32,000 bases of DNA from Flagellatimonas centrodinii (GCF_016918765.2 NZ_CP092105.1:79160-111159); one strand, 5' to 3'. Positions 2,637 to 14,506 are shown, counted from the first letter of the stretch. Notes: a model not told the origin generated them from the letters alone. Numbers and translations are program-made.

Positions 2637-2774
2637 ATTGCTCGGCAGTTCGGCCTGACGTGCAAGGGGAATCTTTCGTAGAGTGCGCACGTCGGGACCA
2701 CCGCTGGCGAACGCCGCAAGAAACAGTCTCGGAACACCGCTTACGCAGCTCAACTGATCGGGGCATAGGACAAG

Positions 2775-4424
2775 ATGCAGGATGGAAAGGAATCCCTCTA
2801 CCTCATCCTCGAGGGTGGCGGTGCGAAGGGCATAGCCCATATCGGTGCAATCCACGCGATTGAGGCATATCGGACCCACATCAGCCTCAGCGGGATCGCC
2901 GGCACATCGGCAGGATCCATCGTCGCGGCGCTCTCCGTGGCGGGGTACTCTGCGGATGAAATCTTCAGCCTCGATGGCAGCACCCACATCCTCCAGAACC
3001 TCCGGCCGCCGCCAAGGTATGCCTATGAATTGCTTGGGCGTGCGGCATGGGAGCGCCTGCGGGTGATTCGCTGGTGCCAGCGGAAACCGAGGCTCGCGGC
3101 TGCGCTGCTCGGACTGCCTGCGCTCTGGATTCTGGGAGCCCTGCTTCCGCCGGAGGGTCCGTGCGACATTGCCATCCTCGCCGCCATCACCGCAGGGCTC
3201 ATCTGGTTGTTCCGAAACGTGACCGGGCTGACTTCGCTGCGTGAGTTCCGCGGGCACCTCGGCGTACTGCTCGACGCCAAGGCCGCGGGCCATACTGATG
3301 TCACATTCAAGCAGGCTAAGGAAATGGGGTGGCTGCCCCTCAAGGTAATTGCCTCTGATCTTACCCACCGGCGCCTCGCTGTGTTCAGCGCAGAAACCAC
3401 CCCGGATGTCGTGATAGCCGATGCAGTCATGGCCAGCATCGCGATCCCCGTGGTGTTCGAGCCCTGGAACATCATCTACCCCTCATATGACGCGGCTCCC
3501 CAGTGGGTACAGCAGGCAAGAGAGCGGCAAGACTGCCCTCTCCCCGCTACACATGCCGATGGCGGCATGATCGCCAACCTACCTGCTTGGGCGTTCGAAG
3601 CTGAGCGTGCTCTGGACCGTGACAGCACGCTTCTGGCTGTTGAACTCACTGGGGCGCACCAAACAGCGACCACAGTTCCCCTGACAGGCCACGGCCTGCT
3701 GGCCAGCCTCATCCATACCGCCATTTTTGGTGCCGGCGAGATCAGTAAAAGGGTGATAGGCCGCAACCTGGTGGTCACTCTGGAGTCCATCAGGCGGGAC
3801 GGCAAGACCGGCCTCGGTGTTTTGGACTTCGACGCGCCGGTAGAAGACCTGACCTATGTCATGCAGGATGCTCGGAAGATGGTCTCAGCGGTGTTGGTGC
3901 GGAAATTCGGCGAGGAGCTGTCGGCATTTCGTCGTGTGACTCAGACGCTGCACGATGCCCTCAAGGACAAAATGCGGCAAGGCATTCTTGGGATCACGAT
4001 CCACTCTGGCGATGTCGCCACGGTCCGGGTCTCGGTTGTGGGGCTCAATACCGCCACCGACAAGCCCGGGACACGGCCCGAGGGGGTGCAGTGTTCGTTT
4101 GGTGACTACAGCGGCTCGCTCTCACCCGGTAGTGGCTTCGCCCATATCCAACGCTTGGCCACGCTTGTCGCCACAAGCGGGTCCCCTGCGTTGGTTTTCA
4201 GTGGAAAGGTTTATCGACCCAACAACACCTGGCAGGCGGCGCCTAACTTTCTTGTTCAGGATGGTTCCTGGAGCGAACTTTGCTGGGCCTATGCGGTCCC
4301 ATGGGAAGTGGATGATCGATGCTGGGTCATCATGGTGGAGTCGAGTAACCACCTCCTCGAGCCCCAGCGGACGGCTGAGAGGATCCAAGCAGCAATCGAG
4401 GATGAGTTGGAGGGCGACGCTTGA
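2775..4424 (+). CDS. Patatin-like phospholipase with an internal hydrophobic hairpin and an uncharacterised ~250-aa C-terminal region
   Basis: Oxyanion motif GGGAKG (LILEGGGAKGIAHIG), nucleophile elbow GTSAG, and catalytic Asp motif DGG (HADGGMIANLP). Two hydrophobic segments (LAAALLGLPALWILGALL / IAILAAITAGLIWLF) sit between the Ser and Asp motifs. AGGA RBS upstream. Confidence 0.85.
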   Translation: MQDGKESLYLILEGGGAKGIAHIGAIHAIEAYRTHISLSGIAGTSAGSIVAALSVAGYSADEIFSLDGSTHILQNLRPPPRYAYELLGRAAWERLRVIRWCQRKPRLAAALLGLPALWILGALLPPEGPCDIAILAAITAGLIWLFRNVTGLTSLREFRGHLGVLLDAKAAGHTDVTFKQAKEMGWLPLKVIASDLTHRRLAVFSAETTPDVVIADAVMASIAIPVVFEPWNIIYPSYDAAPQWVQQARERQDCPLPATHADGGMIANLPAWAFEAERALDRDSTLLAVELTGAHQTATTVPLTGHGLLASLIHTAIFGAGEISKRVIGRNLVVTLESIRRDGKTGLGVLDFDAPVEDLTYVMQDARKMVSAVLVRKFGEELSAFRRVTQTLHDALKDKMRQGILGITIHSGDVATVRVSVVGLNTATDKPGTRPEGVQCSFGDYSGSLSPGSGFAHIQRLATLVATSGSPALVFSGKVYRPNNTWQAAPNFLVQDGSWSELCWAYAVPWEVDDRCWVIMVESSNHLLEPQRTAERIQAAIEDELEGDA

Positions 4425-4490
4425 CAGGGCCACTCCCCTCCCCATATATGTGCTGAATCAGGCTGTCATTGCAGCCGAACGGAGGCCCCT

Positions 4491-4706
4491 ATGACCACCA
4501 CAACGAAGGACCCGCAGGCGAATCCGTCGGAGGCGGCGGCGAAGCGCATCAAAATTGCCGGTGCTAAGGGTAAGGGCGTAATCAGTTCCAAGAACATGAA
4601 GCCGGTCTACGACACATTCTGGGAGGCAGGAAAGCGCGCACGCGAGCTTGAGGCAGAAGCCACGCGACCTGGCTCTGGAATCCGGGTAGTGCGCCTTGTG
4701 CGCTGA
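4491..4706 (+). CDS. Small basic protein (71 aa), unknown function
   Basis: Strong GGAGG 7 nt upstream of the ATG. K/A/R-rich. Immediately followed by a canonical intrinsic terminator. Lies 66 nt downstream of the patatin stop. Confidence 0.6.
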   Translation: MTTTTKDPQANPSEAAAKRIKIAGAKGKGVISSKNMKPVYDTFWEAGKRARELEAEATRPGSGIRVVRLVR

Positions 4707-4725
4707 TCTGACACTGTAATGAATG

Positions 4726-4754
4726 AAGCGCGCCAAACGGCGCGCTTTTTTATT
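4726..4754 (+). terminator. Rho-independent terminator
   Basis: Perfect 9-bp stem AAGCGCGCC / GGCGCGCTT with an AAAC loop, followed by TTTTATT. Confidence 0.8.
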
Positions 4755-4956
4755 GGGGCTCGGCAGTAAGCTGTTGATGCGGAGATTCTGGCGCTTCGGC
4801 TGCAGCCGGCCTGCCAGCCTTGTCCCGGAGCCGAACAGTGGTCGCGGGGAAGGCAACCTAAAGTGGCGGCGGCTCGGCCGTCACCCCCGACATACCAATC
4901 CCACACCGCCGAAGGCCAGGCTGGGCGGTCGCGGTCGGCGGGGAGTGAAACGGTCT

Positions 4957-5766
4957 ATGGAGGCTGAGCCTGCACCATTCAGCCCCATGAGCACCATCAT
5001 CATTCCCGAAGTCATTGGCGCCCAAAAGCACCCTGCTGTCGCAGAAGTGGCAGAACGGGAGGGCTATGGATCAGATGACGGCCGCCAGCCGCCTGCCGTC
5101 GGGAGGGCCGTCACCCTGGTGAGGTCGGACGTGGGGCTGACAAAGCGATTTGGGGTGTGGGCTCTGTTGGCTGCCGTCCTCGCTAGCCTCGTCAGCGGAT
5201 GGGTGACGTTGGGGCGGCGCCACATTCCTGCTGGCGCCGTGGGTCTGATGCAATTCACCGATCACGCCGAGGTTTATCCGAGCGGGACATTCCTTCTGAC
5301 CCCCTGGAGTCCCGAACCACAGTTACTCGATATCGGATCCCAGGTGTCAACTGTGGAGCTCGGAGGAATGGTCGTGGACCGCGAGGGCTTGCCGGTCCCT
5401 TCGCTGACGATCGAAGTGGTGCACCGGTTCGATCCAGCGTTCGCCCAGAGGTTATTGGCCGCAGGCGCCGCCGGTGGCGAGGCGGTACGAATCCGCGTGA
5501 AGTCGGCAGCGACGGCCGCGATGGTGGAGATACTTTCAGAGTTGACGTCCATCGAGTTGGCGAGGATCGGCTTTCGCCTGTCTCCATTGTTGGATGAGCG
5601 TGTTCGGACACTGATCGAGGCTGCATGGCCATCCGATCTTCGCGACGGGATCATCGTCGAACACGTGAGTTTGACGGAGTTGGCCGTCGACGCTGAAGTG
5701 CAACACGCGCTCATGGAAAGTTCGCGGAAGCAGGCTCTGACCGCATTGCTCGAGGGTGCGCCATGA
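4957..5766 (+). CDS. SPFH/band-7-like membrane protein
   Basis: The ORF-track start at 4723 reads through the terminator. I prefer ATG 4957, which has GGGAG 11 nt upstream. One TM (FGVWALLAAVLASLVSGWVTL) is followed by an HflK/C-like pattern (IPAGAVGLMQF...YPSGTFLLTPW...VVDREGLPVPSLTIEVVHRFDP...IIVEHVSLTELAVDAEVQHAL). Confidence 0.55.
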   Translation: MEAEPAPFSPMSTIIIPEVIGAQKHPAVAEVAEREGYGSDDGRQPPAVGRAVTLVRSDVGLTKRFGVWALLAAVLASLVSGWVTLGRRHIPAGAVGLMQFTDHAEVYPSGTFLLTPWSPEPQLLDIGSQVSTVELGGMVVDREGLPVPSLTIEVVHRFDPAFAQRLLAAGAAGGEAVRIRVKSAATAAMVEILSELTSIELARIGFRLSPLLDERVRTLIEAAWPSDLRDGIIVEHVSLTELAVDAEVQHALMESSRKQALTALLEGAP

Positions 5767-6254
5767 GCAGGTGGTGGGCTGGACTTTCTATCTCACTGCT
5801 GCTGCTGGCATCTGCATGTGGTGGCGACGAGGTGGGCGGCATCACGGTTCCGGAGATCAAGCCGCCGCCATGTGTGGTGTCGGCGGAGACGGGGCGACTG
5901 CACAATCACCCAGCCAGGGTTTGGATCGTTAAAGAGCCTCGTGCCGATGACGACCTGGCGTACATGGTAATGAGGTCGGTGTTCGGATTGGCCCTGAACG
6001 GTCCAGAGCTGCTTGATGCGGTGAGGGTCGACCTGGTGATTGAACCTTGGACTTTCGACCTTCGTGATGGTGTCGAAATCGTGCGCGCGCCGAGCGGCGT
6101 GGGCGTGGATCTCCGGTTCAGAAGCTCCTACGCGCCTGAGATCGTCCGAATGGTGCAAGGTCAGCGGCACGCGGTGCTGAAGGTAGGGATCGGCCCCGAG
6201 GAATCTGCGCTGCGCATGATCGCCAGGCGTGAGCGCAAGGACTGCGAAGCGTGA
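5763..6254 (+). CDS. Putative lipoprotein
   Basis: ATGA start/stop overlap with the upstream gene. Signal peptide with a lipobox-like LLLASAC|GG. Confidence 0.55.
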   Translation: MSRWWAGLSISLLLLASACGGDEVGGITVPEIKPPPCVVSAETGRLHNHPARVWIVKEPRADDDLAYMVMRSVFGLALNGPELLDAVRVDLVIEPWTFDLRDGVEIVRAPSGVGVDLRFRSSYAPEIVRMVQGQRHAVLKVGIGPEESALRMIARRERKDCEA

Positions 6255-8344
6255 ACGCGCTCGACGCCGCCCCGGCAAAGGGGTCGGCGGCGGAAGAGAT
6301 TGCAACAGCGAATGACCGGCCACTCTTGCTGCCATGCGGATTCGACGACCTCACGGTGGCCCCCCTCCGTCGCTTCCGGGCGAGGGACCTGCAGCCATTC
6401 ATCGGACAGGACGTTGTAGTCGAGGCGGCGGTATTCCGGGTAGTACCTGACCGCCGATCGCTGGGGATCTTGGGCGTCCTCATTGGACAAACCGGAGCCG
6501 GCCTCATGATTCTGGGGGGCTACGACTCTGCGCCGGTGCTTCGATATCTACTCTCGCCCAAGCGCGCCGCCTTTTTACTTTATGGCCGGATTCGCAAGGA
6601 AAGCGGCCTGTTGTGCATGCGTGATGTTGAGCCGATTTCGCGTGAATGGTGCGGGCAAATCAGACCTCGATATCCGTTGGATGGTCGGGTGGTTGCGGCG
6701 CAAGTTCGCCGTATTGCCGATATCGAGAAGGACAGCTATCTGGCCGACGCCCGCGCCCAGGCGATTCGACGGGCCAAGGTACGATCCAATCTCGACTCCA
6801 TCGTCCAGTCTGCGGCGGCCACGGTGCTGGAGGAATCATTAAAGCATCCGAAGAGCGTAGAAGCCGCTCTGGGTGTGCTGACGCGGATTGAGGCGCGGAC
6901 GAAGCTCCGGGGCATCCTGCGGGTGCTTCACAAGCCTGACTCGATGACCAGTGCGTTGGCTGCCTTGCACAAGATCCAGGTGGTCGCCGCAGTGTGCATG
7001 CTGCAGGAGGGTGTTGAGGCGAACTTCACCGCGTACCAGAAGCGACGGAGGATCAAACGCGACGCGCCAGCTGTCGCTCTCGAAGTGCTCGCCGGCGGCA
7101 AGGCCGCTGCTCTGGCCCGGCTCTGCATGTACTACCCCTATACGCTGACGGACGAGCAACAAACCGCAATATGGGAATGCCTCAACGAACTCAACGGTGA
7201 GCGTTTCGTGCGCTGGCTCATATCCGGCGATGTGGGGACCGGAAAAACCGACACCTTCGGCGCAATCGCCCGAGCTATGGCTTTGTCGGGGCATCGGGTC
7301 GCGGTGCTGTGCCCCACAGCGAATCTAGTTCGGCAGACCTTCGCGAAGCTAGCAAGCTGGAATCCCGATGTCGGTATGAGCTTCACCGCGGGCCGCGAGG
7401 TTGAGGGCGATCCCGAGACAGCTTTGATCCAGGTGGGGACGCTGGCACTGCGCCGATCGGCGCGACGCTTCGACCTGGTGGTGGTCGACGAGCAGCAGAG
7501 ATTTGCCCGAATGCAGCGCGAAGAGTTGATGTCGTCGGCCGGCCACCTGATTGAAGCTACAGCAACCTGCATTCCCCGCACCCAGGGCCTGGCTGATCTG
7601 GGCGCAATCAAAGTCAGCCGGCTGCGGAAATGCCACGTCGAGAAGGCCATCACCACACGCATCTTCGAGCACAACGAGCGGCGCGCGCTGTTCGCTGGGG
7701 TGCGGGAAAGCGTCGAGGCTGGGCGGAAAGTGCTGGTGTTCTATCCGGCGATTCATGGCAGCGGCGCCGCACACGTGGCCACCTTGATGGAGTACGAGCA
7801 GGCCTGGAGAAAGCTGTTCGGTGATCGCCTCGGCGTTGTACACGGGGCCCTCAAGCCCACGGACGCCCAGGCGGTGATCGACCAACTGCGGTCGAACAAG
7901 GTCGACGTAGTCCTGACCACCACACTGCTGGAAATGGGTCTCGATGTGCCAGATATCCAGCGAGTTGTGGTCGTCCAGGCCCAGCGATTCGGACTGACGA
8001 CGCTCCATCAGATCCGAGGGAGGGTTGCCCGTGCCGGCGGTGAGGGCTATTGCGATCTCTACATGCTCGGTGACTACTCGGCGAAGTCACGGAGGCGGAT
8101 GGAAGTCATGACCCGCACCACGGATGGCTTCGTGATAGCTCGGATGGACGCGCAGCTGCGCGGTACCGGCGACGTCACAGAGCACGGACACCGGCAGAAA
8201 GGATCACTACCTGGCAATCCGTTCGTCAATCTGCCGGTCCCCCCGAAGGCCATGGACGAGGCCGCACGCGCGCTCTACAAGGTTTGGTTCGATCCAGCTG
8301 CAGAGGTGGTGGCCGGGGCGAGCGGCCAACCCGATGGCGGGTAG
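6251..8344 (+). CDS. RecG-like SF2 DNA helicase
   Basis: GTGA overlap with the upstream gene. Walker A GDVGTGKTD, motif II VVVDEQQRF, ATCIPRT (RecG ATPIPRT), TTTLLEMGLDVPD, and FGLTTLHQIRGRVARAG (RecG FGLAQLHQLRGRVGRG). The N-terminal ~170 aa parallels the RecG wedge/OB region. Confidence 0.8.
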   Translation: MNALDAAPAKGSAAEEIATANDRPLLLPCGFDDLTVAPLRRFRARDLQPFIGQDVVVEAAVFRVVPDRRSLGILGVLIGQTGAGLMILGGYDSAPVLRYLLSPKRAAFLLYGRIRKESGLLCMRDVEPISREWCGQIRPRYPLDGRVVAAQVRRIADIEKDSYLADARAQAIRRAKVRSNLDSIVQSAAATVLEESLKHPKSVEAALGVLTRIEARTKLRGILRVLHKPDSMTSALAALHKIQVVAAVCMLQEGVEANFTAYQKRRRIKRDAPAVALEVLAGGKAAALARLCMYYPYTLTDEQQTAIWECLNELNGERFVRWLISGDVGTGKTDTFGAIARAMALSGHRVAVLCPTANLVRQTFAKLASWNPDVGMSFTAGREVEGDPETALIQVGTLALRRSARRFDLVVVDEQQRFARMQREELMSSAGHLIEATATCIPRTQGLADLGAIKVSRLRKCHVEKAITTRIFEHNERRALFAGVRESVEAGRKVLVFYPAIHGSGAAHVATLMEYEQAWRKLFGDRLGVVHGALKPTDAQAVIDQLRSNKVDVVLTTTLLEMGLDVPDIQRVVVVQAQRFGLTTLHQIRGRVARAGGEGYCDLYMLGDYSAKSRRRMEVMTRTTDGFVIARMDAQLRGTGDVTEHGHRQKGSLPGNPFVNLPVPPKAMDEAARALYKVWFDPAAEVVAGASGQPDGG

Positions 8345-8393
8345 CAGTGCCGCGTGCCGTGTCAATCGGAGTGCTGTGGTGGAGCTGCTGCGC

Positions 8394-9299
8394 CTATCGG
8401 TGAGGCGCGCGGATGGCAACGACTTTAGCCCCGGGGTCGCCATCGTCGACAGGGTGGAGATCCGACCCTGAAGCCGCAGCAGCGGTTTCGGCCGGCGCTG
8501 GCCAAAGATCTACTTCTACTTCGCTGCGGCCATGCTGCTGGTATCGGGGCATCACGATGCCGGCGTCGACGGTGCCGCCGGCAGGGAGTGGCCTGAGCAT
8601 CTTGGCCAGGGCGGAATCAGTGCCGCGAAGAACCTGTCCCTCGGAGCTGGTGACCAGTGAAAACAGCGGGAGCGCCTCCCAGCTATAGGCCTCATCAAGC
8701 CGAACGAGGGACCACTGTAGACGCGGTGGCGCCATCCGCGGTGACGGGATCGGTCCCTCGAGGCGCCAGGTGTAGCCAGGCGGTAGCTCCCGGTTGACCT
8801 TCGGAAGGAGCTCGCCCGAGAGCACGGAGCGCTCGATCAGGGTCCACTCGTAGGCTGCAGATATCGACCAGATGTCCCGCATGGCGGCATAGGTGGTTAT
8901 CGCAGGCATCAGGCCGGCAAGCTGGTCTAGCCCCACTTTGTCGACGTCGACGGCGAACAGCAGGGCAGGATGCGATCGAAGTGCATTGAGCACGCACAAC
9001 TCAAGTCCATGCAGGTAGCTCAATGGTCGACGGACGTGGTCGTGAATCACGCTCTGAAGCTCAAGTTCGGATAGCCGGAAGCGCATTCTGGCCAGACCGT
9101 ACGAGATATCGCCGGTAAGACGGCCGACCTGGTAGAGCGATACGTCGGTAATCAGTTCATTGCCTCGGCCGACGATGACCACCATGCCGGGCGCGCCAGG
9201 CGGAACGAGCGTGGCCAGCACCTCGTGGGCCTGGGCGACCCGGAAAAGCGGATCGGTCGAGGTGGCGGCCGTGTTGGGGGGCCCGATCTCATCGGCCAC
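8394..9299 (-). CDS. Hypothetical protein (301 aa), co-oriented downstream of the Tus-like gene
   Basis: GTG start preceded by GGAGGAG. No motif recognised. Confidence 0.55.
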   Translation of the reverse strand: MADEIGPPNTAATSTDPLFRVAQAHEVLATLVPPGAPGMVVIVGRGNELITDVSLYQVGRLTGDISYGLARMRFRLSELELQSVIHDHVRRPLSYLHGLELCVLNALRSHPALLFAVDVDKVGLDQLAGLMPAITTYAAMRDIWSISAAYEWTLIERSVLSGELLPKVNRELPPGYTWRLEGPIPSPRMAPPRLQWSLVRLDEAYSWEALPLFSLVTSSEGQVLRGTDSALAKMLRPLPAGGTVDAGIVMPRYQQHGRSEVEVDLWPAPAETAAAASGSDLHPVDDGDPGAKVVAIRAPHR

Positions 9300-9371
9300 G
9301 CGGGGACTCCTCCGGACATCCGGCTCTGGTATTCGGCGGCAGGCTCGAGGCGCAACTGATCGTGGGCGGGC

Positions 9372-10298
9372 TCATCCCTCATTTAGAGGCGCGTCGGTGC
9401 CAGAATCGATTGATTTGGAGGCCTGACGTTCCCGGTGTTGATAGAGGTACCTGTAGACGTGCAAGCGCGGCAGGAGCGGCTCGAGCTCGACCTTGCGATC
9501 GCTGCGGCGGCTGGTGGGAACATCGACCAGATCCGATAGCATGTTCAGGCCGGGCCACCGGCCGGCCGGGATGAATAGGGGCAGTGCCCCGGGTATCGGT
9601 GGGAGCGGCTCGCCATCGATCCAAACAAGGAGCTCCACATGGGGAGCCACCGGCTTGCGAATAACCAGCACCTCGGCATCATGCAGTCCTTCCAGGGCCG
9701 CGAGTTCGCGCTCGATCGTTTCGTCGGACAGCGTGCCACGCTGTCGCCGCTCAGCGTTTTGGATTCGCCTGCGGACATCGGCCACCGTCAGCCGTTTGCC
9801 GGTGGTTGCGCCGCGGTTCCAGAAGAAGCTGACACGCTCCGGCGGCTGCTGAAGCATATGGAGCTGGCGGTAGACCTGCAGCCGCTGCACGTGGGCGAAT
9901 GGACGCATTTTGCGAACCTGAGTGAAGGTGTACTCGTCGATCGCCCTCCCCCGCTCGGCGAACACCTTCTTTGCCCGATTGACGTCCTCCAGCGCTTCGA
10001 GCGTCTGCGGTGAGCATGCCAGCAGACCTGGAGCACGTACGCTGGCCACCGGCGCCTGGCCAGGCCGGTAGTTCATGAGGGACAGTGCGGCGGCCGCCCA
10101 GTTTCGAGCGCCCTCGCCTTCTAGGCTGTTCACCGCCATGGTCCGTTGTGCCGCCGGCGAATCACGCTCGGCCAGGACCGCGGCGTATGCCGGAAGGCGA
10201 CCGTCAACCCGACGGACGCAATCGGACAGCTCCGACAAGGCGCCGCGGACCCGGTCATAGGCGTCCAGCAGCCCCACAAAGACTTCAGGCTCAACCAT
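9372..10298 (-). CDS. Tus-like (DNA replication terminus site-binding protein family) candidate
   Basis: Preferred start is ATG 10298 (MVEPEVF...) with AGAGGTGGGT upstream, not 10340. At 308 aa it is the same size as E. coli Tus. Collinear matches to my recollection of Tus, ours listed first: VRAPGLLAC vs VRLPGVLCY; LQVYRQLHML vs LNAYRTLTVL; VSFFWNRG vs LRFGWANKH; VIRKPVAPHVELLVW vs KIKRPVKVQPIARVW; LLPRLHVY vs IIPRLHLY near the C-terminus. Confidence 0.55.
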   Translation of the reverse strand: MVEPEVFVGLLDAYDRVRGALSELSDCVRRVDGRLPAYAAVLAERDSPAAQRTMAVNSLEGEGARNWAAAALSLMNYRPGQAPVASVRAPGLLACSPQTLEALEDVNRAKKVFAERGRAIDEYTFTQVRKMRPFAHVQRLQVYRQLHMLQQPPERVSFFWNRGATTGKRLTVADVRRRIQNAERRQRGTLSDETIERELAALEGLHDAEVLVIRKPVAPHVELLVWIDGEPLPPIPGALPLFIPAGRWPGLNMLSDLVDVPTSRRSDRKVELEPLLPRLHVYRYLYQHRERQASKSIDSGTDAPLNEG

Positions 10299-10308
10299 AC
10301 CCACCTCT

Positions 10309-10327
10309 TTTATAAACCATCCCCCTA
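10309..10327. repeat. Left arm of a perfect 19-bp inverted repeat (TTTATAAACCATCCCCCTA)
   Basis: Exact reverse complement of 10464-10482. Ends 10 nt upstream of the Tus-like start codon and abuts its SD. Confidence 0.9.
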
Positions 10328-10463
10328 GTACACCAGCCACCCCACTCCTGCCACCCCCACCCGCTATCCCCCTGACCCACCGACATTTCTTTTTCTCTTT
10401 TCCCCCTCTTCTTCTCCCCTCTTAAAGCTTGGGCGGCCGGGGCTGGGGCTGGGCGCCCTTGTT

Positions 10464-10482
10464 TAGGGGGATGGTTTATAAA
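10464..10482. repeat. Right arm of a perfect 19-bp inverted repeat (TAGGGGGATGGTTTATAAA)
   Basis: Exact reverse complement of 10309-10327. Lies 26 nt upstream of the ATG at 10509. Contains a TATAAA -10-like hexamer. Confidence 0.9.
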
Positions 10483-10508
10483 CGGGGGTGCGCACGGTCT
10501 AAGGGATC

Positions 10509-12668
10509 ATGACCCGACGCCGCAACAGAACAACCATCGACGGCCGCGTCTTGCGCGCCTGGCGAAGTCCGACAGGCTCGGCGGTGGCCCAACTGCAGGT
10601 CGAGAGCGAGATCGTGCCGGTGCTGGCCAAGAACATGGCGCTGGTGAGCGACGAGGTCGTCTGTCTGGAGGGCAAATGGACCTCGCACGTCGGTTCGGGC
10701 CGCCTGTTCCTGGCGGCAAAGATCCGGACGCGCCCTCCCGAGAGCCTGGCCGCTTCGGCATCGATGCTGGCGGAGGCCTTGGAAGTCGATATCGGCGACA
10801 TCAACCGGCTCATCAGCCGCTTCGGTGACGACCTGCTGAGCGTGCTGGACGGCGGCCATGCGAAACGGCTCACGGATGCCGGATTCGACGCCGGCATGGC
10901 GCGCACCATGATGACGAACTGGGCTTCGCATCGGTCGCACCAGGCCTTGGCACCGCTGCTGGGGAAGCTCGGCCTCGACGAAGAGGCGCTGGAAGCCCTC
11001 CGCAATGTGTTCGGCAGCTCCGTCGATCTCGATCGACAGCTCCGCGAGCAGCCCTACAACGTGATTCTGCATCTGCCGACCGCACAGTGGGATCGCGTCG
11101 AACGGGTCGCTCGTGAGTTGGGGATAGCCGAGGATGCACCCCAGCGGCTGGATGCTGCTGTCATCGCCGAGCTGCGAGCTCGAGGGTTCAGCGGGCACAC
11201 CTACATGACCCTCGATTGGCTGAGGGAGGCCGCCCTGGCCAGGTTGGGGCTGAGCGAACGAAAGACCGCGAGACGCGCGCTCGAGGCAAGAATCGACACA
11301 CTGCGGGCCGAGCGCCTGCTGACGATTGATGCCGACCGTGCATTCCTGCCACAGGCTTTCGAGGAAGCGGCCGCTCTGGCTGAAGGGGTGCTGTCGCACA
11401 GTCGGGCCTTGGCAGACATCGACCCGCCAGACGATCGAGAAGCCCTGGAACACGCGCTATCGAAGATGAGCGTGCCGGAGGGAGTTGATCCGTGGGAGCT
11501 TGGCAGGTTCGCACTGGGCGGAGCGCTCTCCGTGATCTGCGTGCAGGGGCTTGAGGCAGCGCTAGATGTGGCGACGGGCCTCGATCAGGTGTGCGACGTT
11601 CTGAAGATCAAGATGGGGCTCATCTGCCCAACCCTCTGGGCTGAAACCGCATTGAACGAACGTGGCCTGGTGAGTCGGCCGAAAACGCTGCACGAGATGT
11701 TGGGGACTCCGCCGCGGTACGACAAGATCAGCGGTCTGCAGGTTGAGTTGATCGTCATTCTGGGCGCGGACCAGCTTTCATCCGACCAGCTGCACGGGCT
11801 GTTTCGTGCGCGGCCCGACGGCGTTGGGCTGGTTCTGATCGGGGACGACTCGCTGGACACGGGATTCATTCTCGGCCGACCGTTCCGGGATATCGCCAGT
11901 GCCGGCGACGAGGTCGGCGACGCTATTCGCATGATCCGGCATCCGACTGGTGGAGCGCTGGTCACCAGGGCTCGACGCCTAATGGACGCCCCGGAGATGA
12001 TCGGCCGCTTGCAAGGGCGCTTTCAGTTGCCGCTGTCAGCACATGAATGTCGGACTGAAGACGTAGACGGCGCGGTCTACAGCATCGTGGAGCGCGTGCT
12101 TCCAAGGTTGAACGCTCTCGATGAAAGCTACGCGGTCTGTTACCCGCGGAGGGCGGGACTCCCTGATCCCACGGTCCTCGCTGACCGACTGGAGCAGCTT
12201 GAGAGCACTGAAGCAGCGATCGCCTTCGGGCGACGATCTTGGCGGTCCGGGGCAAAGGTCTACTTCACCGAGCCACTGCCAGGGGAGATCACAATCCCGG
12301 CCTTCACCCGACTCGAGCTTCGTCTGATTGATGCCAGTCCGGGACCCTTCCCGGCACGCACCGTCGATGGCCGGGAACTGGCGATTACAGCCGCACAATT
12401 GGAGCGCGCATTTCCTGCGCGGGTGGCACCGGTTCACGCGGTGCTGTGGCAACCGGTTGATACGCTCATCCTGATGCTGCCTCCCGGCCGGCTCCATCAC
12501 GCACGTCGCATCCTCTATTCCATGGCAGCCAGCGCGCGCCGGCGCCTGATCCTGGTTGGAGCTACTGAGGCGTTCACTGCCGCCTTGTCGGAAGACCATA
12601 GCGAGCCTTCAAGTCTGCTAAAGATGACGTTGGTAGGCCGCGCCCATCACGAGAGAGCATCCACATGA
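10509..12668 (+). CDS. RecD2/TraA-architecture SF1 helicase-like protein with degenerate ATPase motifs
   Basis: N-terminal OB/SH3-like segment (VVCLEGKWTSHVGSGRLFLAAKI), an HhH-like region, QPYNVI (RecD2 nPYxL), CPTLWAE...TLHEMLG (APTGRAA...TIHRLL) and a C-terminal RRRLILVG. However, Walker A is replaced by VQGLEAALD and Walker B DE by ILGADQ. Confidence 0.65.
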   Translation: MTRRRNRTTIDGRVLRAWRSPTGSAVAQLQVESEIVPVLAKNMALVSDEVVCLEGKWTSHVGSGRLFLAAKIRTRPPESLAASASMLAEALEVDIGDINRLISRFGDDLLSVLDGGHAKRLTDAGFDAGMARTMMTNWASHRSHQALAPLLGKLGLDEEALEALRNVFGSSVDLDRQLREQPYNVILHLPTAQWDRVERVARELGIAEDAPQRLDAAVIAELRARGFSGHTYMTLDWLREAALARLGLSERKTARRALEARIDTLRAERLLTIDADRAFLPQAFEEAAALAEGVLSHSRALADIDPPDDREALEHALSKMSVPEGVDPWELGRFALGGALSVICVQGLEAALDVATGLDQVCDVLKIKMGLICPTLWAETALNERGLVSRPKTLHEMLGTPPRYDKISGLQVELIVILGADQLSSDQLHGLFRARPDGVGLVLIGDDSLDTGFILGRPFRDIASAGDEVGDAIRMIRHPTGGALVTRARRLMDAPEMIGRLQGRFQLPLSAHECRTEDVDGAVYSIVERVLPRLNALDESYAVCYPRRAGLPDPTVLADRLEQLESTEAAIAFGRRSWRSGAKVYFTEPLPGEITIPAFTRLELRLIDASPGPFPARTVDGRELAITAAQLERAFPARVAPVHAVLWQPVDTLILMLPPGRLHHARRILYSMAASARRRLILVGATEAFTAALSEDHSEPSSLLKMTLVGRAHHERAST

Positions 12669-14506
12669 GTGTGCGCGAGCGCTACAGCTCTGAGGCCCGG
12701 GTGCGCGTACGCGCACACGATGAAATGCGGCGACTAAAGGCCACGCCGTTCACCCCCCTACTCGCGGCCATGGCGCCGTTCTTGCCCGCCCCGGCGTTCG
12801 GAGCGATCGGCATCGGCGCCGGCGTCTTTGCAGCCAACAGGCTGCAGGCGCTGAGGACACTTAGGAAGCCTCCAGAACTCGCAAAGCAACATCGGTTCGC
12901 TGGCCGCGAAGAGACGGGCATAGCCGATCGGATCTATCTCGGACACAGTATTGATTTCCTGACCTACAAATCAGGACTCGAGGCGCTGAGGGAAAGACAG
13001 GGCCGGCTTACCGCCGAAGAGCGGACCGACTATGACAACAGTGTCATCGAGAAGATGTTTCCCTCCTTCACCGACGACAAGAACATGGCAGCGCACATGG
13101 CGCTGCTAGGCAGCCCTGGGCAGGGGAAGACCGAATTTCTGCTGTCGCTCTGCTATCAGCAAGCCAAGCGCGGTGGCGGGATGATCATCTTCGACCCCAA
13201 GAGCGACGACAAGGTGTTCGCACGTATCGCCGAGATCATGCGTTTGACGAACCGCGAGCACGATCTGCGCTACTTCAACCCGGATCGGCCGAATCAGAGT
13301 CACACCTACAACCCGCTGCTTTTCGGGGATGCCCGTCATGTGGTGAGCACCGGAATGAAGCTCACCAAGACACCAACAGGGGGCGACTCGGACTTCTTCT
13401 ACCGGATGACACGCATCGGCATGCTCGCAGCCGTGGTTTGCCTGAAGGCGCAGCCCGAGTGGACACCGATATCGTTCCGAGATCTGGCCCCGCTGTTTTC
13501 AGATTTGGGTCTGTTCGCCGAACTCTGGCAACGCATCCCGGACGAAAACGTCGATGCGAAGGCATTCGTGTATCAGTTTTTACGTATGTGGCTGACACAA
13601 AACCGGCAAGGTCAGCTCGGGCCCGACTATCAGCAATACCTCAAAGTGCTGGCCGGATTGAAAGGCATGGTGATGGATTTCTGTCACGGCCCCTATATCC
13701 GACTGCTGAACTCCTACAACCCGGACATCGACCTGAAAGACGTGATCGAGAACGGGCGGGTGTTGTACGTGGGCTTCTCCGCCCTTTCTGACAAGCAAGG
13801 CAGCAATGTGTTCGGGCGGCTGCTAATGGCAGATGCGGCACGCGCACTCGGGGAGATCTACACCCAGCGAGTCCGGCCGGCCGTGTCATGCATGATTTTC
13901 ATGGACGAATACGGCTCCTCGGCAGACGAAGCCGACCTCGAGCTGTTTCAGATGGGTAGAGACGCCAATGTCCCGATTGTGGCAGCCGTACAGGGCCGGG
14001 GCTTCCTCGACTCGGTGAATCAGCACTTCGTCAGCAAATTACTCGACGCAACCGGCTCCCAACTTTTCCTGAGGGTATCAAGCGAGGAGAGCCGCAGTAC
14101 TGCAGCCGCGCTGGCCGGAACGATCATTGCCCGCTTTGGACAGGGGACCGACAGCCGGAACTTCGGCAGTAGTCACAAGAACTTCGAGACCGGGATGCTC
14201 AATCAAGAGAGCCACGGCCGCAGTGTCAGCGTCGGGTCCAGGGAGATGAGAGAGGACATGCTTCAGCCCGAGGATTTCGCATTGGCGAAGGGCGATGCAA
14301 TCCTGTTTTCCTCCTCAGGGGTGCATCGGATGCGCCTGCCACTGCTCACGTTCAAGACCGCGATCCCGCCTAGCGAGAAGGTATGGCTTCCACGCTTTGC
14401 GCGTCCGGAGGTCAAGGGGCTCGACTTGATGCGCCGCTCGATGGAGCACGACACGCACTTCATACACGCCTTCAGCAATGGGGCACTCGAAGACGAGGAC
14501 AGGTGA
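12665..14506 (+). CDS. Type IV coupling protein (TraD/VirD4 family)
   Basis: ATGA overlap with the upstream gene. N-terminal hydrophobic segments, Walker A LLGSPGQGKTE, and Walker B-like CMIFMDEYGS. Confidence 0.8.
   Translation: MSVRERYSSEARVRVRAHDEMRRLKATPFTPLLAAMAPFLPAPAFGAIGIGAGVFAANRLQALRTLRKPPELAKQHRFAGREETGIADRIYLGHSIDFLTYKSGLEALRERQGRLTAEERTDYDNSVIEKMFPSFTDDKNMAAHMALLGSPGQGKTEFLLSLCYQQAKRGGGMIIFDPKSDDKVFARIAEIMRLTNREHDLRYFNPDRPNQSHTYNPLLFGDARHVVSTGMKLTKTPTGGDSDFFYRMTRIGMLAAVVCLKAQPEWTPISFRDLAPLFSDLGLFAELWQRIPDENVDAKAFVYQFLRMWLTQNRQGQLGPDYQQYLKVLAGLKGMVMDFCHGPYIRLLNSYNPDIDLKDVIENGRVLYVGFSALSDKQGSNVFGRLLMADAARALGEIYTQRVRPAVSCMIFMDEYGSSADEADLELFQMGRDANVPIVAAVQGRGFLDSVNQHFVSKLLDATGSQLFLRVSSEESRSTAAALAGTIIARFGQGTDSRNFGSSHKNFETGMLNQESHGRSVSVGSREMREDMLQPEDFALAKGDAILFSSSGVHRMRLPLLTFKTAIPPSEKVWLPRFARPEVKGLDLMRRSMEHDTHFIHAFSNGALEDEDR

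Follow-up and report, generated by a model that had tools for sequence, protein, structure and literature searches.

A three-gene operon in a 32,000-nucleotide stretch of DNA from Flagellatimonas centrodinii (the whole stretch being referred to here as the window), which is part of a 146,558-bp plasmid, encodes an SPFH/Band-7-like membrane protein (gene 1), a predicted lipoprotein (gene 2) and a RecG-family helicase (gene 3). On balance, we consider it probable that this locus represents an operon belonging to a conjugative plasmid's backbone, in which the helicase would remodel branched plasmid DNA and the two envelope proteins, although co-transcribed with it, would serve a separate purpose. 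Separate plasmid housekeeping parts appear to have been joined in this lineage to give the trio, which does not look like a new membrane-to-DNA defence system. The superfamily of gene 3 is a known one, and on plasmids the protein falls into a family annotated as 'helicase-related protein', on which there appear to be no studies; its sharing of an operon with genes for an SPFH protein and a lipoprotein represents a variant specific to this lineage. The genes of the operon, and the elements recognised within gene 3, are as follows:

4987..5766, plus strand: gene 1, divergent single-pass SPFH/Band-7-like membrane protein, 259 residues (weak Band_7 match; ortholog above the cut-off)
5763..6254, plus strand: gene 2, predicted lipoprotein, 163 residues (lipobox LASAC, pattern-based)
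6251..8344, plus strand: gene 3, plasmid-type RecG-family helicase, 697 residues (RecG models, structure match and profile-profile alignment)
about 6323-6655, plus strand: wedge of gene 3, about residues 25-135 (profile-profile alignment and AlphaFold2 model)
6665-6676, plus strand: PRYP of gene 3 (PxYP linker motif)
7226-7249, plus strand: Walker A motif of gene 3, GDVGTGKT
7487-7504, plus strand: motif II of gene 3, DEQQRF
7559-7582, plus strand: motif III of gene 3, TATCIPRT
8006-8032, plus strand: motif VI of gene 3, HQIRGRVAR
8123-8170, plus strand: TRG-like (translocation in RecG) motif of gene 3, DGFVIARMDAQLRGTG, residues 625-640, aligning with high confidence to the canonical RecG motif DGFxLAExDLxLRGxG

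Open reading frame (ORF) calling in the window placed genes 1, 2 and 3 on the plus strand at 4723..5766, 5763..6254 and 6251..8344. As a preliminary description of the locus had reported, the genes are joined by four-base start/stop overlaps, ATGA at 5763-5766 between genes 1 and 2 and GTGA at 6251-6254 between genes 2 and 3, and both four-base overlaps are kept on a relative plasmid, there as GTGA and GTGA. No junction is more common in bacterial operons than an overlap of this kind; it speaks for co-transcription and probable coupled translation, not for a functional complex. Genes 1-3 are thus probably co-transcribed and translationally coupled in the present lineage. The same description had begun gene 1 at 4957. 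The ORF contains internal in-frame ATGs at both 4957 and 4987, and 4987 is the more likely start, because the NCBI call is a protein of 259 residues (which corresponds to 4987) and because the upstream frame is not conserved in the relative: although conservation persists there at the DNA level, the ATG that matches 4957 is put out of frame by a 1-nt indel. Protein conservation between gene 1 and its ortholog starts at MSxIIIP.

As judged from its sequence, gene 3 is a complete RecG-family paralogue with a wedge, a superfamily 2 (SF2) motor and a TRG motif. The motor matched Pfam Helicase_C and DEAD above their cut-offs and, in a sequence search, RecG of Thermotoga maritima (PDB 1gm5; E=1e-44). 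Against TIGR00643 the protein reached E=3e-81 and 274 bits, compared with an equivalog cut-off of 659.4, and it fell far below the cut-offs of all PRK10917 models; since it scores below these housekeeping cut-offs, gene 3 is a paralogue and not the RecG of the host. Motifs I, II, III and VI and the TRG motif could all be located, in agreement with the earlier statement that the RecG-type motifs are retained. Pfam RecG_wedge and RecG_dom3_C gave no match in gene 3. The wedge-like N-terminus that had been proposed was recovered by profile and structure comparison. Alignment of a profile of the plasmid clade with 16 canonical RecGs (hhalign) gave a probability of 100 and E=2e-106 and ran from about residue 4 through the wedge, PxYP and motifs I-VI to TRG. 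An AlphaFold2 (AF2) model of gene 3, made with 24 aligned plasmid-type relatives, had a mean predicted local distance difference test score (pLDDT) of 80.5 and contained a beta-rich domain at residues 30-140 (pLDDT 75-93); its best Foldseek match was RecG 1gm5_A over the full length (711 columns, template-modelling score 0.62), and Mfd matched over the motor only (about 475 columns). Gene 3 therefore has the domain order of RecG from E. coli and T. maritima (1GM5), wedge, PxYP, SF2 motifs I-VI and TRG, but it differs from these proteins in its low identity to them (about 20-25%), in a motif II that reads DEQQ and not DEQH, and in being plasmid-borne in an operon with envelope proteins. The RecG-like motor and TRG motif are also found in Mfd, but gene 3 has neither the RNA-polymerase-interacting nor the UvrB-homology domains of that protein.

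Relatives of gene 3 are widespread on plasmids. At E<=1e-40 we found them in 93 PLSDB records, from Xanthomonas, Pseudomonas, Shewanella, Burkholderia and others, and the family is also present in many metagenomic contigs. The plasmid relatives are 27-39% identical to gene 3 over 65-97% of the length and carry the same motifs. Among the annotated 'helicase-related protein' members to which gene 3 is related are WP_046936107.1 of Xanthomonas p211, WP_235645231.1 of a Rhodanobacter plasmid and WP_011711552.1 of the Shewanella ANA-3 plasmid. Scanning genome contigs with a profile of the helicase alignment returned mostly chromosomal recG loci with generic motor motifs and was uninformative about the plasmid family. 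We then inspected the genomic contexts of 12 helicase relatives outside the lineage of the window, checking the upstream proteins for a lipobox or SPFH domain. In none of the 12 did an SPFH or lipoprotein gene lie upstream of the helicase. An ssb gene was found within 3 kb in 4 of the 12, a MobH/TraI_2 relaxase and TraD gene just downstream in 4, and mobI two genes upstream in one; one further relative lay amid tra genes. A backbone location, often just upstream of a relaxase/TraD operon, is thus a trait that gene 3 has in common with its relatives, but in the window a RecD2-like gene occupies the MobH position and a Tus-like gene pair is interposed. On plasmids of Rhodanobacter, Methylomonas and Xanthomonas (L001, L097 and L098) helicase relatives were also observed near PRTRC genes (ThiF family, PRTRC A/B/C), ssb and genes for TPR/SEL1 proteins, the cluster lying upstream of mobH-traD; this grouping would appear to be a conserved part of the MOBH plasmid backbone. 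What emerges is a large, apparently unstudied family of full RecG paralogues on MOBH-type conjugative plasmids, encoded beside ssb, mobI and relaxase/TraD genes, which suggests that plasmids bring their own branch-migration/fork-remodelling enzyme for replication or establishment.

Together, the domain structure and these contexts suggest how gene 3 might act. By analogy with RecG, the wedge would bind a DNA junction, and the SF2 motor and TRG motif would pump double-stranded DNA, so that stalled or colliding forks, D-loops, R-loops and 3' flaps are plausible substrates. It would work during vegetative plasmid replication or during establishment after transfer, a role to which the relatives on MOBH-type plasmids point by their proximity to ssb, mobI, MobH relaxase/TraD and tra genes. 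The preliminary description had offered a function in the entry or establishment of incoming DNA as one of two possibilities. A DNA-processing or establishment role does fit the context of the helicase family (ssb, mobI, MobH/TraD), but it is one for the helicase alone and not for the trio.

The trio as such is restricted to one plasmid lineage. We met it again in metagenomic contigs, the longest of 199.6 kb, which represent a single related lineage and are syntenic with the window from KfrA/DUF2726 to TraK at 59-98% amino acid identity. A megablast search of PLSDB with the 6-kb region returned no match. The recurrence stays within one plasmid lineage and is not independent evidence for the grouping. 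The expectation that the three genes would be conserved together elsewhere was therefore disappointed: they occur together in the window and in the one syntenic relative lineage, and in 0 of the 12 other helicase contexts. Amino acid identities between the window and the relative were as follows:

SPFH protein (gene 1): 60%
lipoprotein (gene 2): 63%
helicase (gene 3): 82%
301-residue protein: 85%
Tus-like protein: 89%
RecD2-like protein: 90%
coupling protein: 98%

All three genes of the trio are under purifying selection, with ratios of nonsynonymous to synonymous divergence (dN/dS) against the ortholog of 0.11 for gene 1, 0.18 for gene 2 and 0.04 for gene 3. Synonymous divergence (dS) from the relative was 1.9-2.7 for the trio and the genes upstream of it, compared with 0.66-0.97 for the block that comprises the 301-residue, Tus-like, RecD2-like and coupling-protein genes (8394-14506). 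This drop in dS suggests a recombination boundary near 8350-8390.

We also asked what the two envelope proteins are. Homologs of gene 1 were sought with HMMER, using a two-sequence profile in an exhaustive search of 1.84 billion representative proteins. The search returned one 50%-identity cluster and a single remote match, P0084 (E=5e-4); gene 1 had no homolog in PLSDB (tblastn), and its profile matched no PDB sequence. The SPFH assignment made in the preliminary description stood only in part. The copy in the window lies below the Pfam threshold for Band_7 (PF01145; E=0.018, 15.5 bits compared with 23.6; positions 3-163 of 176), but the ortholog, P0002, exceeds the cut-off with 29.5 bits over the same span of the model (3-163 of 176), and the sole remote homolog P0084 is a true Band_7 protein (57 bits, E=2.6e-15). 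Gene 1 contains one hydrophobic helix, at residues 57-75 (mean Kyte-Doolittle value 2.0), and no second; a single such helix before the SPFH domain is found in P0002 and P0084 as well. It is preceded in gene 1 by an N-terminal tail of 56 residues, and in all three proteins the N-terminal flank of the transmembrane helix is the more positive one. From this positive-inside bias and the long tail, the topology is probably N-in/C-out, as in HflK/C, with the SPFH domain in the periplasm, which would place this domain with the lipoprotein and not with the helicase. In having an N-terminal transmembrane helix followed by a putative SPFH domain gene 1 resembles HflK/HflC and other SPFH proteins (QmcA, YqiK and flotillins). 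It differs from them in being highly divergent (below the Pfam threshold), in ending in a short C-terminal helix where the known proteins have a long coiled coil, and in lacking an NfeD or FtsH partner, in whose place the lipoprotein is found.

The designation of gene 2 as a lipoprotein gene, also made in the preliminary description, was upheld by a pattern-based call and by the ortholog. The predicted signal peptide ends in MSRWWAGLSISLLLLASAC-GGDEV, and that of the ortholog in LLVLASGC-GGDEV; LAS[AG]C-GGDEV is kept in the alignment of the two, and Cys19, Cys37 and Cys161 are all conserved. As for gene 1, tblastn detected no homolog of gene 2 in PLSDB. Genes 1 and 2 would thus form an envelope pair with an evolutionary history of its own, and they probably have their own function, for example as a membrane scaffold.

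Several points weigh against the separation of helicase and envelope pair that we propose. The conserved four-base overlaps and the deeper dS shared by all three genes indicate joint inheritance of the trio, and a genuine functional link would be consistent with this. Gene 1 has a conserved N-terminal tail (motifs MSxIIIP and VTLVR), which would be cytoplasmic and could contact the helicase. Neither envelope protein has a secure fold: the AF2 model of gene 1, made from a two-sequence alignment, was unusable (pLDDT 39) and leaves its fold unconfirmed, and that of gene 2 is unassigned, the protein having no family in Pfam, NCBIfam, PADLOC, PHROGs or PDB. Finally, the contexts of distant relatives do not prove the role of gene 3, and our literature searches found no experimental study of the plasmid RecG-like family.

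On its downstream side the operon faces two genes of opposite orientation, one of which encodes a Tus homolog, and an inverted repeat:

8394..9299, minus strand: convergent 301-residue protein (ORF; co-oriented with the Tus-like gene)
9372..10298 (ORF to 10340), minus strand: Tus-like replication terminus-binding protein, 308 residues from the conserved start (Pfam Ter PF05472)
10304..10327: inverted repeat, left arm, core TTTATAAACCATCCCCC, just upstream of the Tus-like start
10464..10487: inverted repeat, right arm, core GGGGGATGGTTTATAAA

The Tus-like protein matched Pfam Ter (PF05472) with E=8e-13 and 48.5 bits, compared with a cut-off of 22, and a profile of its family matched E. coli Tus (1ecr_A) with E=1.4e-10 (positions 40-291 against 26-306). 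It can thus be regarded, on sequence grounds, as a true homolog of the Tus proteins of the Tus-Ter replication fork trap (E. coli Tus, 1ECR; pCAR1 tus), although it is only 25-29% identical to plasmid Tus proteins. The two repeat arms flank a CT-rich tract at about 10388-10425 in a divergent intergenic region, and their 17-bp core is exact on both strands, compared with 0.01 matches expected by chance. The repeat is conserved in the close relative L010 (14439-14457 and 14591-14616). It lies directly upstream of the Tus-like gene, as TerB lies just upstream of tus in E. coli, but its candidate site, recognised from sequence, resembles Ter only loosely. Paired Ter-like sites, an operator for autoregulation and an oriT (origin of transfer) element are the candidate roles that we see for it. 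The 301-residue protein had no family in domain and family library searches.

The remote gene 1 homolog P0084 is encoded next to a Tus-like gene, a position that gene 1 itself comes close to in the window. On a 12-kb contig (L100), its gene (6001-7263, plus strand) is convergent with a Tus-like gene (7260-8471, minus strand), the two overlapping by 4 bases, and the Tus-like protein is 34% identical to that of the window. Arms of 44 nt (8530-8573 and 8682-8725) lie just upstream of this Tus-like gene in the same architecture but with a different sequence. No other protein of the window has a homolog at this locus, the helicase, lipoprotein and 301-residue genes being absent; the Tus-like protein there has a C-terminal extension of about 95 residues. 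The link between SPFH and Tus-like genes is thus seen in two lineages and that between helicase and Tus-like genes in one, which suggests that the SPFH/Tus-like association is independent of the helicase. A link of Tus to an SPFH protein is not described for the Tus-Ter trap. A general Tus-RecG plasmid module, which we also considered, was weakened by the comparison of 60 Tus-like with 60 helicase PLSDB records, among which, in the matches listed, no accession was shared.

These observations raise an alternative, which we hold to be unlikely, in which the convergent cluster functions as a whole (4987-10487) and its task is replication termination and fork processing. The Tus-like protein would bind the two inverted 17-bp sites and arrest forks, the RecG-like helicase would resolve arrested or colliding forks and 3' flaps, so preventing over-replication of the plasmid, and the SPFH protein and lipoprotein would tie the process to the membrane. 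The solid Tus assignment, the convergence of the only remote gene 1 homolog with a Tus-like gene, and the presence in both lineages of an inverted repeat around a CT-rich tract upstream of the Tus-like gene, a position comparable to that of TerB, all argue for such a module. Plasmid-borne tus genes are known (PMC6549158; pCAR1), and E. coli RecG is reported to act at fork fusions in the Tus/Ter-bounded terminus (PMC6125675, PMC4999828). However, only two lineages show the association, one of them without the helicase, lipoprotein and 301-residue genes, none of the 16 other Tus-like loci (pCAR1 type) has an SPFH or helicase gene within 8 kb, the two sets of 60 PLSDB records share no accession among the matches listed, and an operator or an oriT element would account for the repeats equally well. 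In its strongest form, which we think quite doubtful, the convergent cluster and its inverted 17-bp repeats would be a self-contained, membrane-associated termination and fork-rescue module in which Tus stops forks at paired Ter-like sites, a dedicated RecG paralogue clears the branched DNA left behind and an SPFH protein co-evolving with Tus localises or regulates the process. If the SPFH/Tus-like link is a functional one, the recurrence of a rare SPFH protein beside a distinct subgroup of plasmid Tus homologs with paired inverted sites would join replication termination to a membrane scaffold and provide a compact system for studying Tus-RecG interplay outside the E. coli chromosome.

Two further alternatives give the envelope proteins a more prominent part. 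A role for genes 1 and 2 as a pair in entry or surface exclusion, with one product in the inner membrane, the other a lipoprotein and no more than a transcript in common with the helicase, strikes us as improbable. Both proteins have a predicted envelope location and their genes adjoin transfer genes, on a Rhodanobacter plasmid the helicase homolog is closely followed by a gene for a TraT lipoprotein, and the two proteins, at 60-63% amino acid identity to the relative compared with 82-98% for the helicase and transfer genes, evolve faster, as is typical of exclusion specificity factors. But the family libraries revealed no similarity of either protein to TraT, TraS, Eex or known exclusion proteins, dN/dS values of 0.11-0.18 give no sign of diversifying selection, the gene 1 relative on L100 adjoins a Tus-like gene and not transfer genes, and we know of no SPFH protein that acts as an exclusion factor. 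More improbable still is the proposal of the preliminary description that the trio is an accessory anti-phage or anti-plasmid system, with the SPFH protein and lipoprotein as membrane sensor or effector and the RecG-like protein as motor. The genes are co-transcribed and coupled, the genes nearby encode a DUF2726 protein and a patatin phospholipase that weakly resembles defence phospholipases, and SF2 helicases are common in defence systems, the gene 3 core giving generic matches to DpdF, Nhi and Cas3. Yet these matches in PADLOC-DB 2.0 are to the motor core, come from unrelated systems and have E>=3e-7, and genes 1 and 2 have none; gene 3 is a full RecG homolog without a nuclease or other effector domain; the patatin gene is a later insertion that is absent from the relatives; the trio lies in the backbone of a single plasmid lineage beside transfer genes and does not vary across defence islands; and helicase relatives adjoin ssb and relaxase genes. 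A literature search combining SPFH, anti-phage and helicase gave only an incidental citation and no precedent, so that the proposal was left without positive support. Such a system would have been striking, and knowing that it is unsupported saves follow-up effort.

The backbone reading thus remains the one we prefer, and the locus draws its interest chiefly from the plasmid RecG family and from the possible association of the SPFH protein with the Tus-like protein and its paired sites. In keeping with the preliminary description, no described system was found to pair the three parts of the trio: genes 1 and 2 have no PADLOC match, and literature searches returned nothing of the kind. [quoted passage not shown]

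The wider setting of the operon is that of a plasmid backbone for DNA metabolism and transfer. The remaining features to which we refer are:

41-895: KfrA
2775-4424: patatin-like phospholipase
4491-4706: 71-residue ORF
4725..4757 (stem 4725-4748), plus strand: strong intrinsic terminator, 10 pairs of which 7 are GC, then a T-run
10509-12668, plus strand: RecD2-like protein, 719 residues

The window also encodes a DUF2726 protein, an SXT-TraD-like coupling protein and TraK-, TraB- and TraC-like mating-pair proteins, and the mating-pair genes of the plasmid are of the F/G type. That the element is conjugative, as had been stated, is borne out by KfrA, the TraD-like type IV coupling protein, TraK, TraB and TraC within the window. 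The operon had, however, been placed in the cargo part of this element. The trio is not cargo, because it lies inside the fully syntenic backbone block beside the transfer genes. The cargo is the cassette formed by the patatin gene, the 71-residue ORF and the terminator, which is the sole insertion relative to the related plasmids (about 2650-4950, with a conserved palindrome on one side and the DNA proximally upstream of gene 1 on the other). The terminator (4725-4748) closes this cassette upstream of the operon, and on the other side ORF calling showed the minus-strand pair (8394-9299 and 9372-10340) converging on the helicase gene, which confirms the position given earlier for the operon, between a terminator and a convergent pair. 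The patatin protein shows weak similarity to anti-phage, CBASS and VpdC phospholipase models.

The gene for the 719-residue protein sits in the slot that a MobH relaxase occupies on related plasmids and overlaps the TraD-like coupling gene downstream. Its likeness to RecD2 is confined to the N-terminal part (HHH_RecD2; TIGR01448 residues 17-292), with a weak P-loop region. The protein had no TraI_2, other relaxase or PDB match, and nowhere in the window could a relaxase be recognised. Upstream of the window, the first 8.7 kb contain no replication initiator; the DNA on that side (L118, 1-9900) encodes a tyrosine recombinase, an NYN-domain protein and a 5'-3' exonuclease. The conserved palindrome that borders the inserted cassette, TTGTCCACAGG...CCTGTGGACAA, lies at about 2600-2640, downstream of a 170-residue gene, and its counterpart in L010 (about 8620-8660) immediately precedes gene 1; it may thus represent an operator or terminator that the operon had ancestrally.

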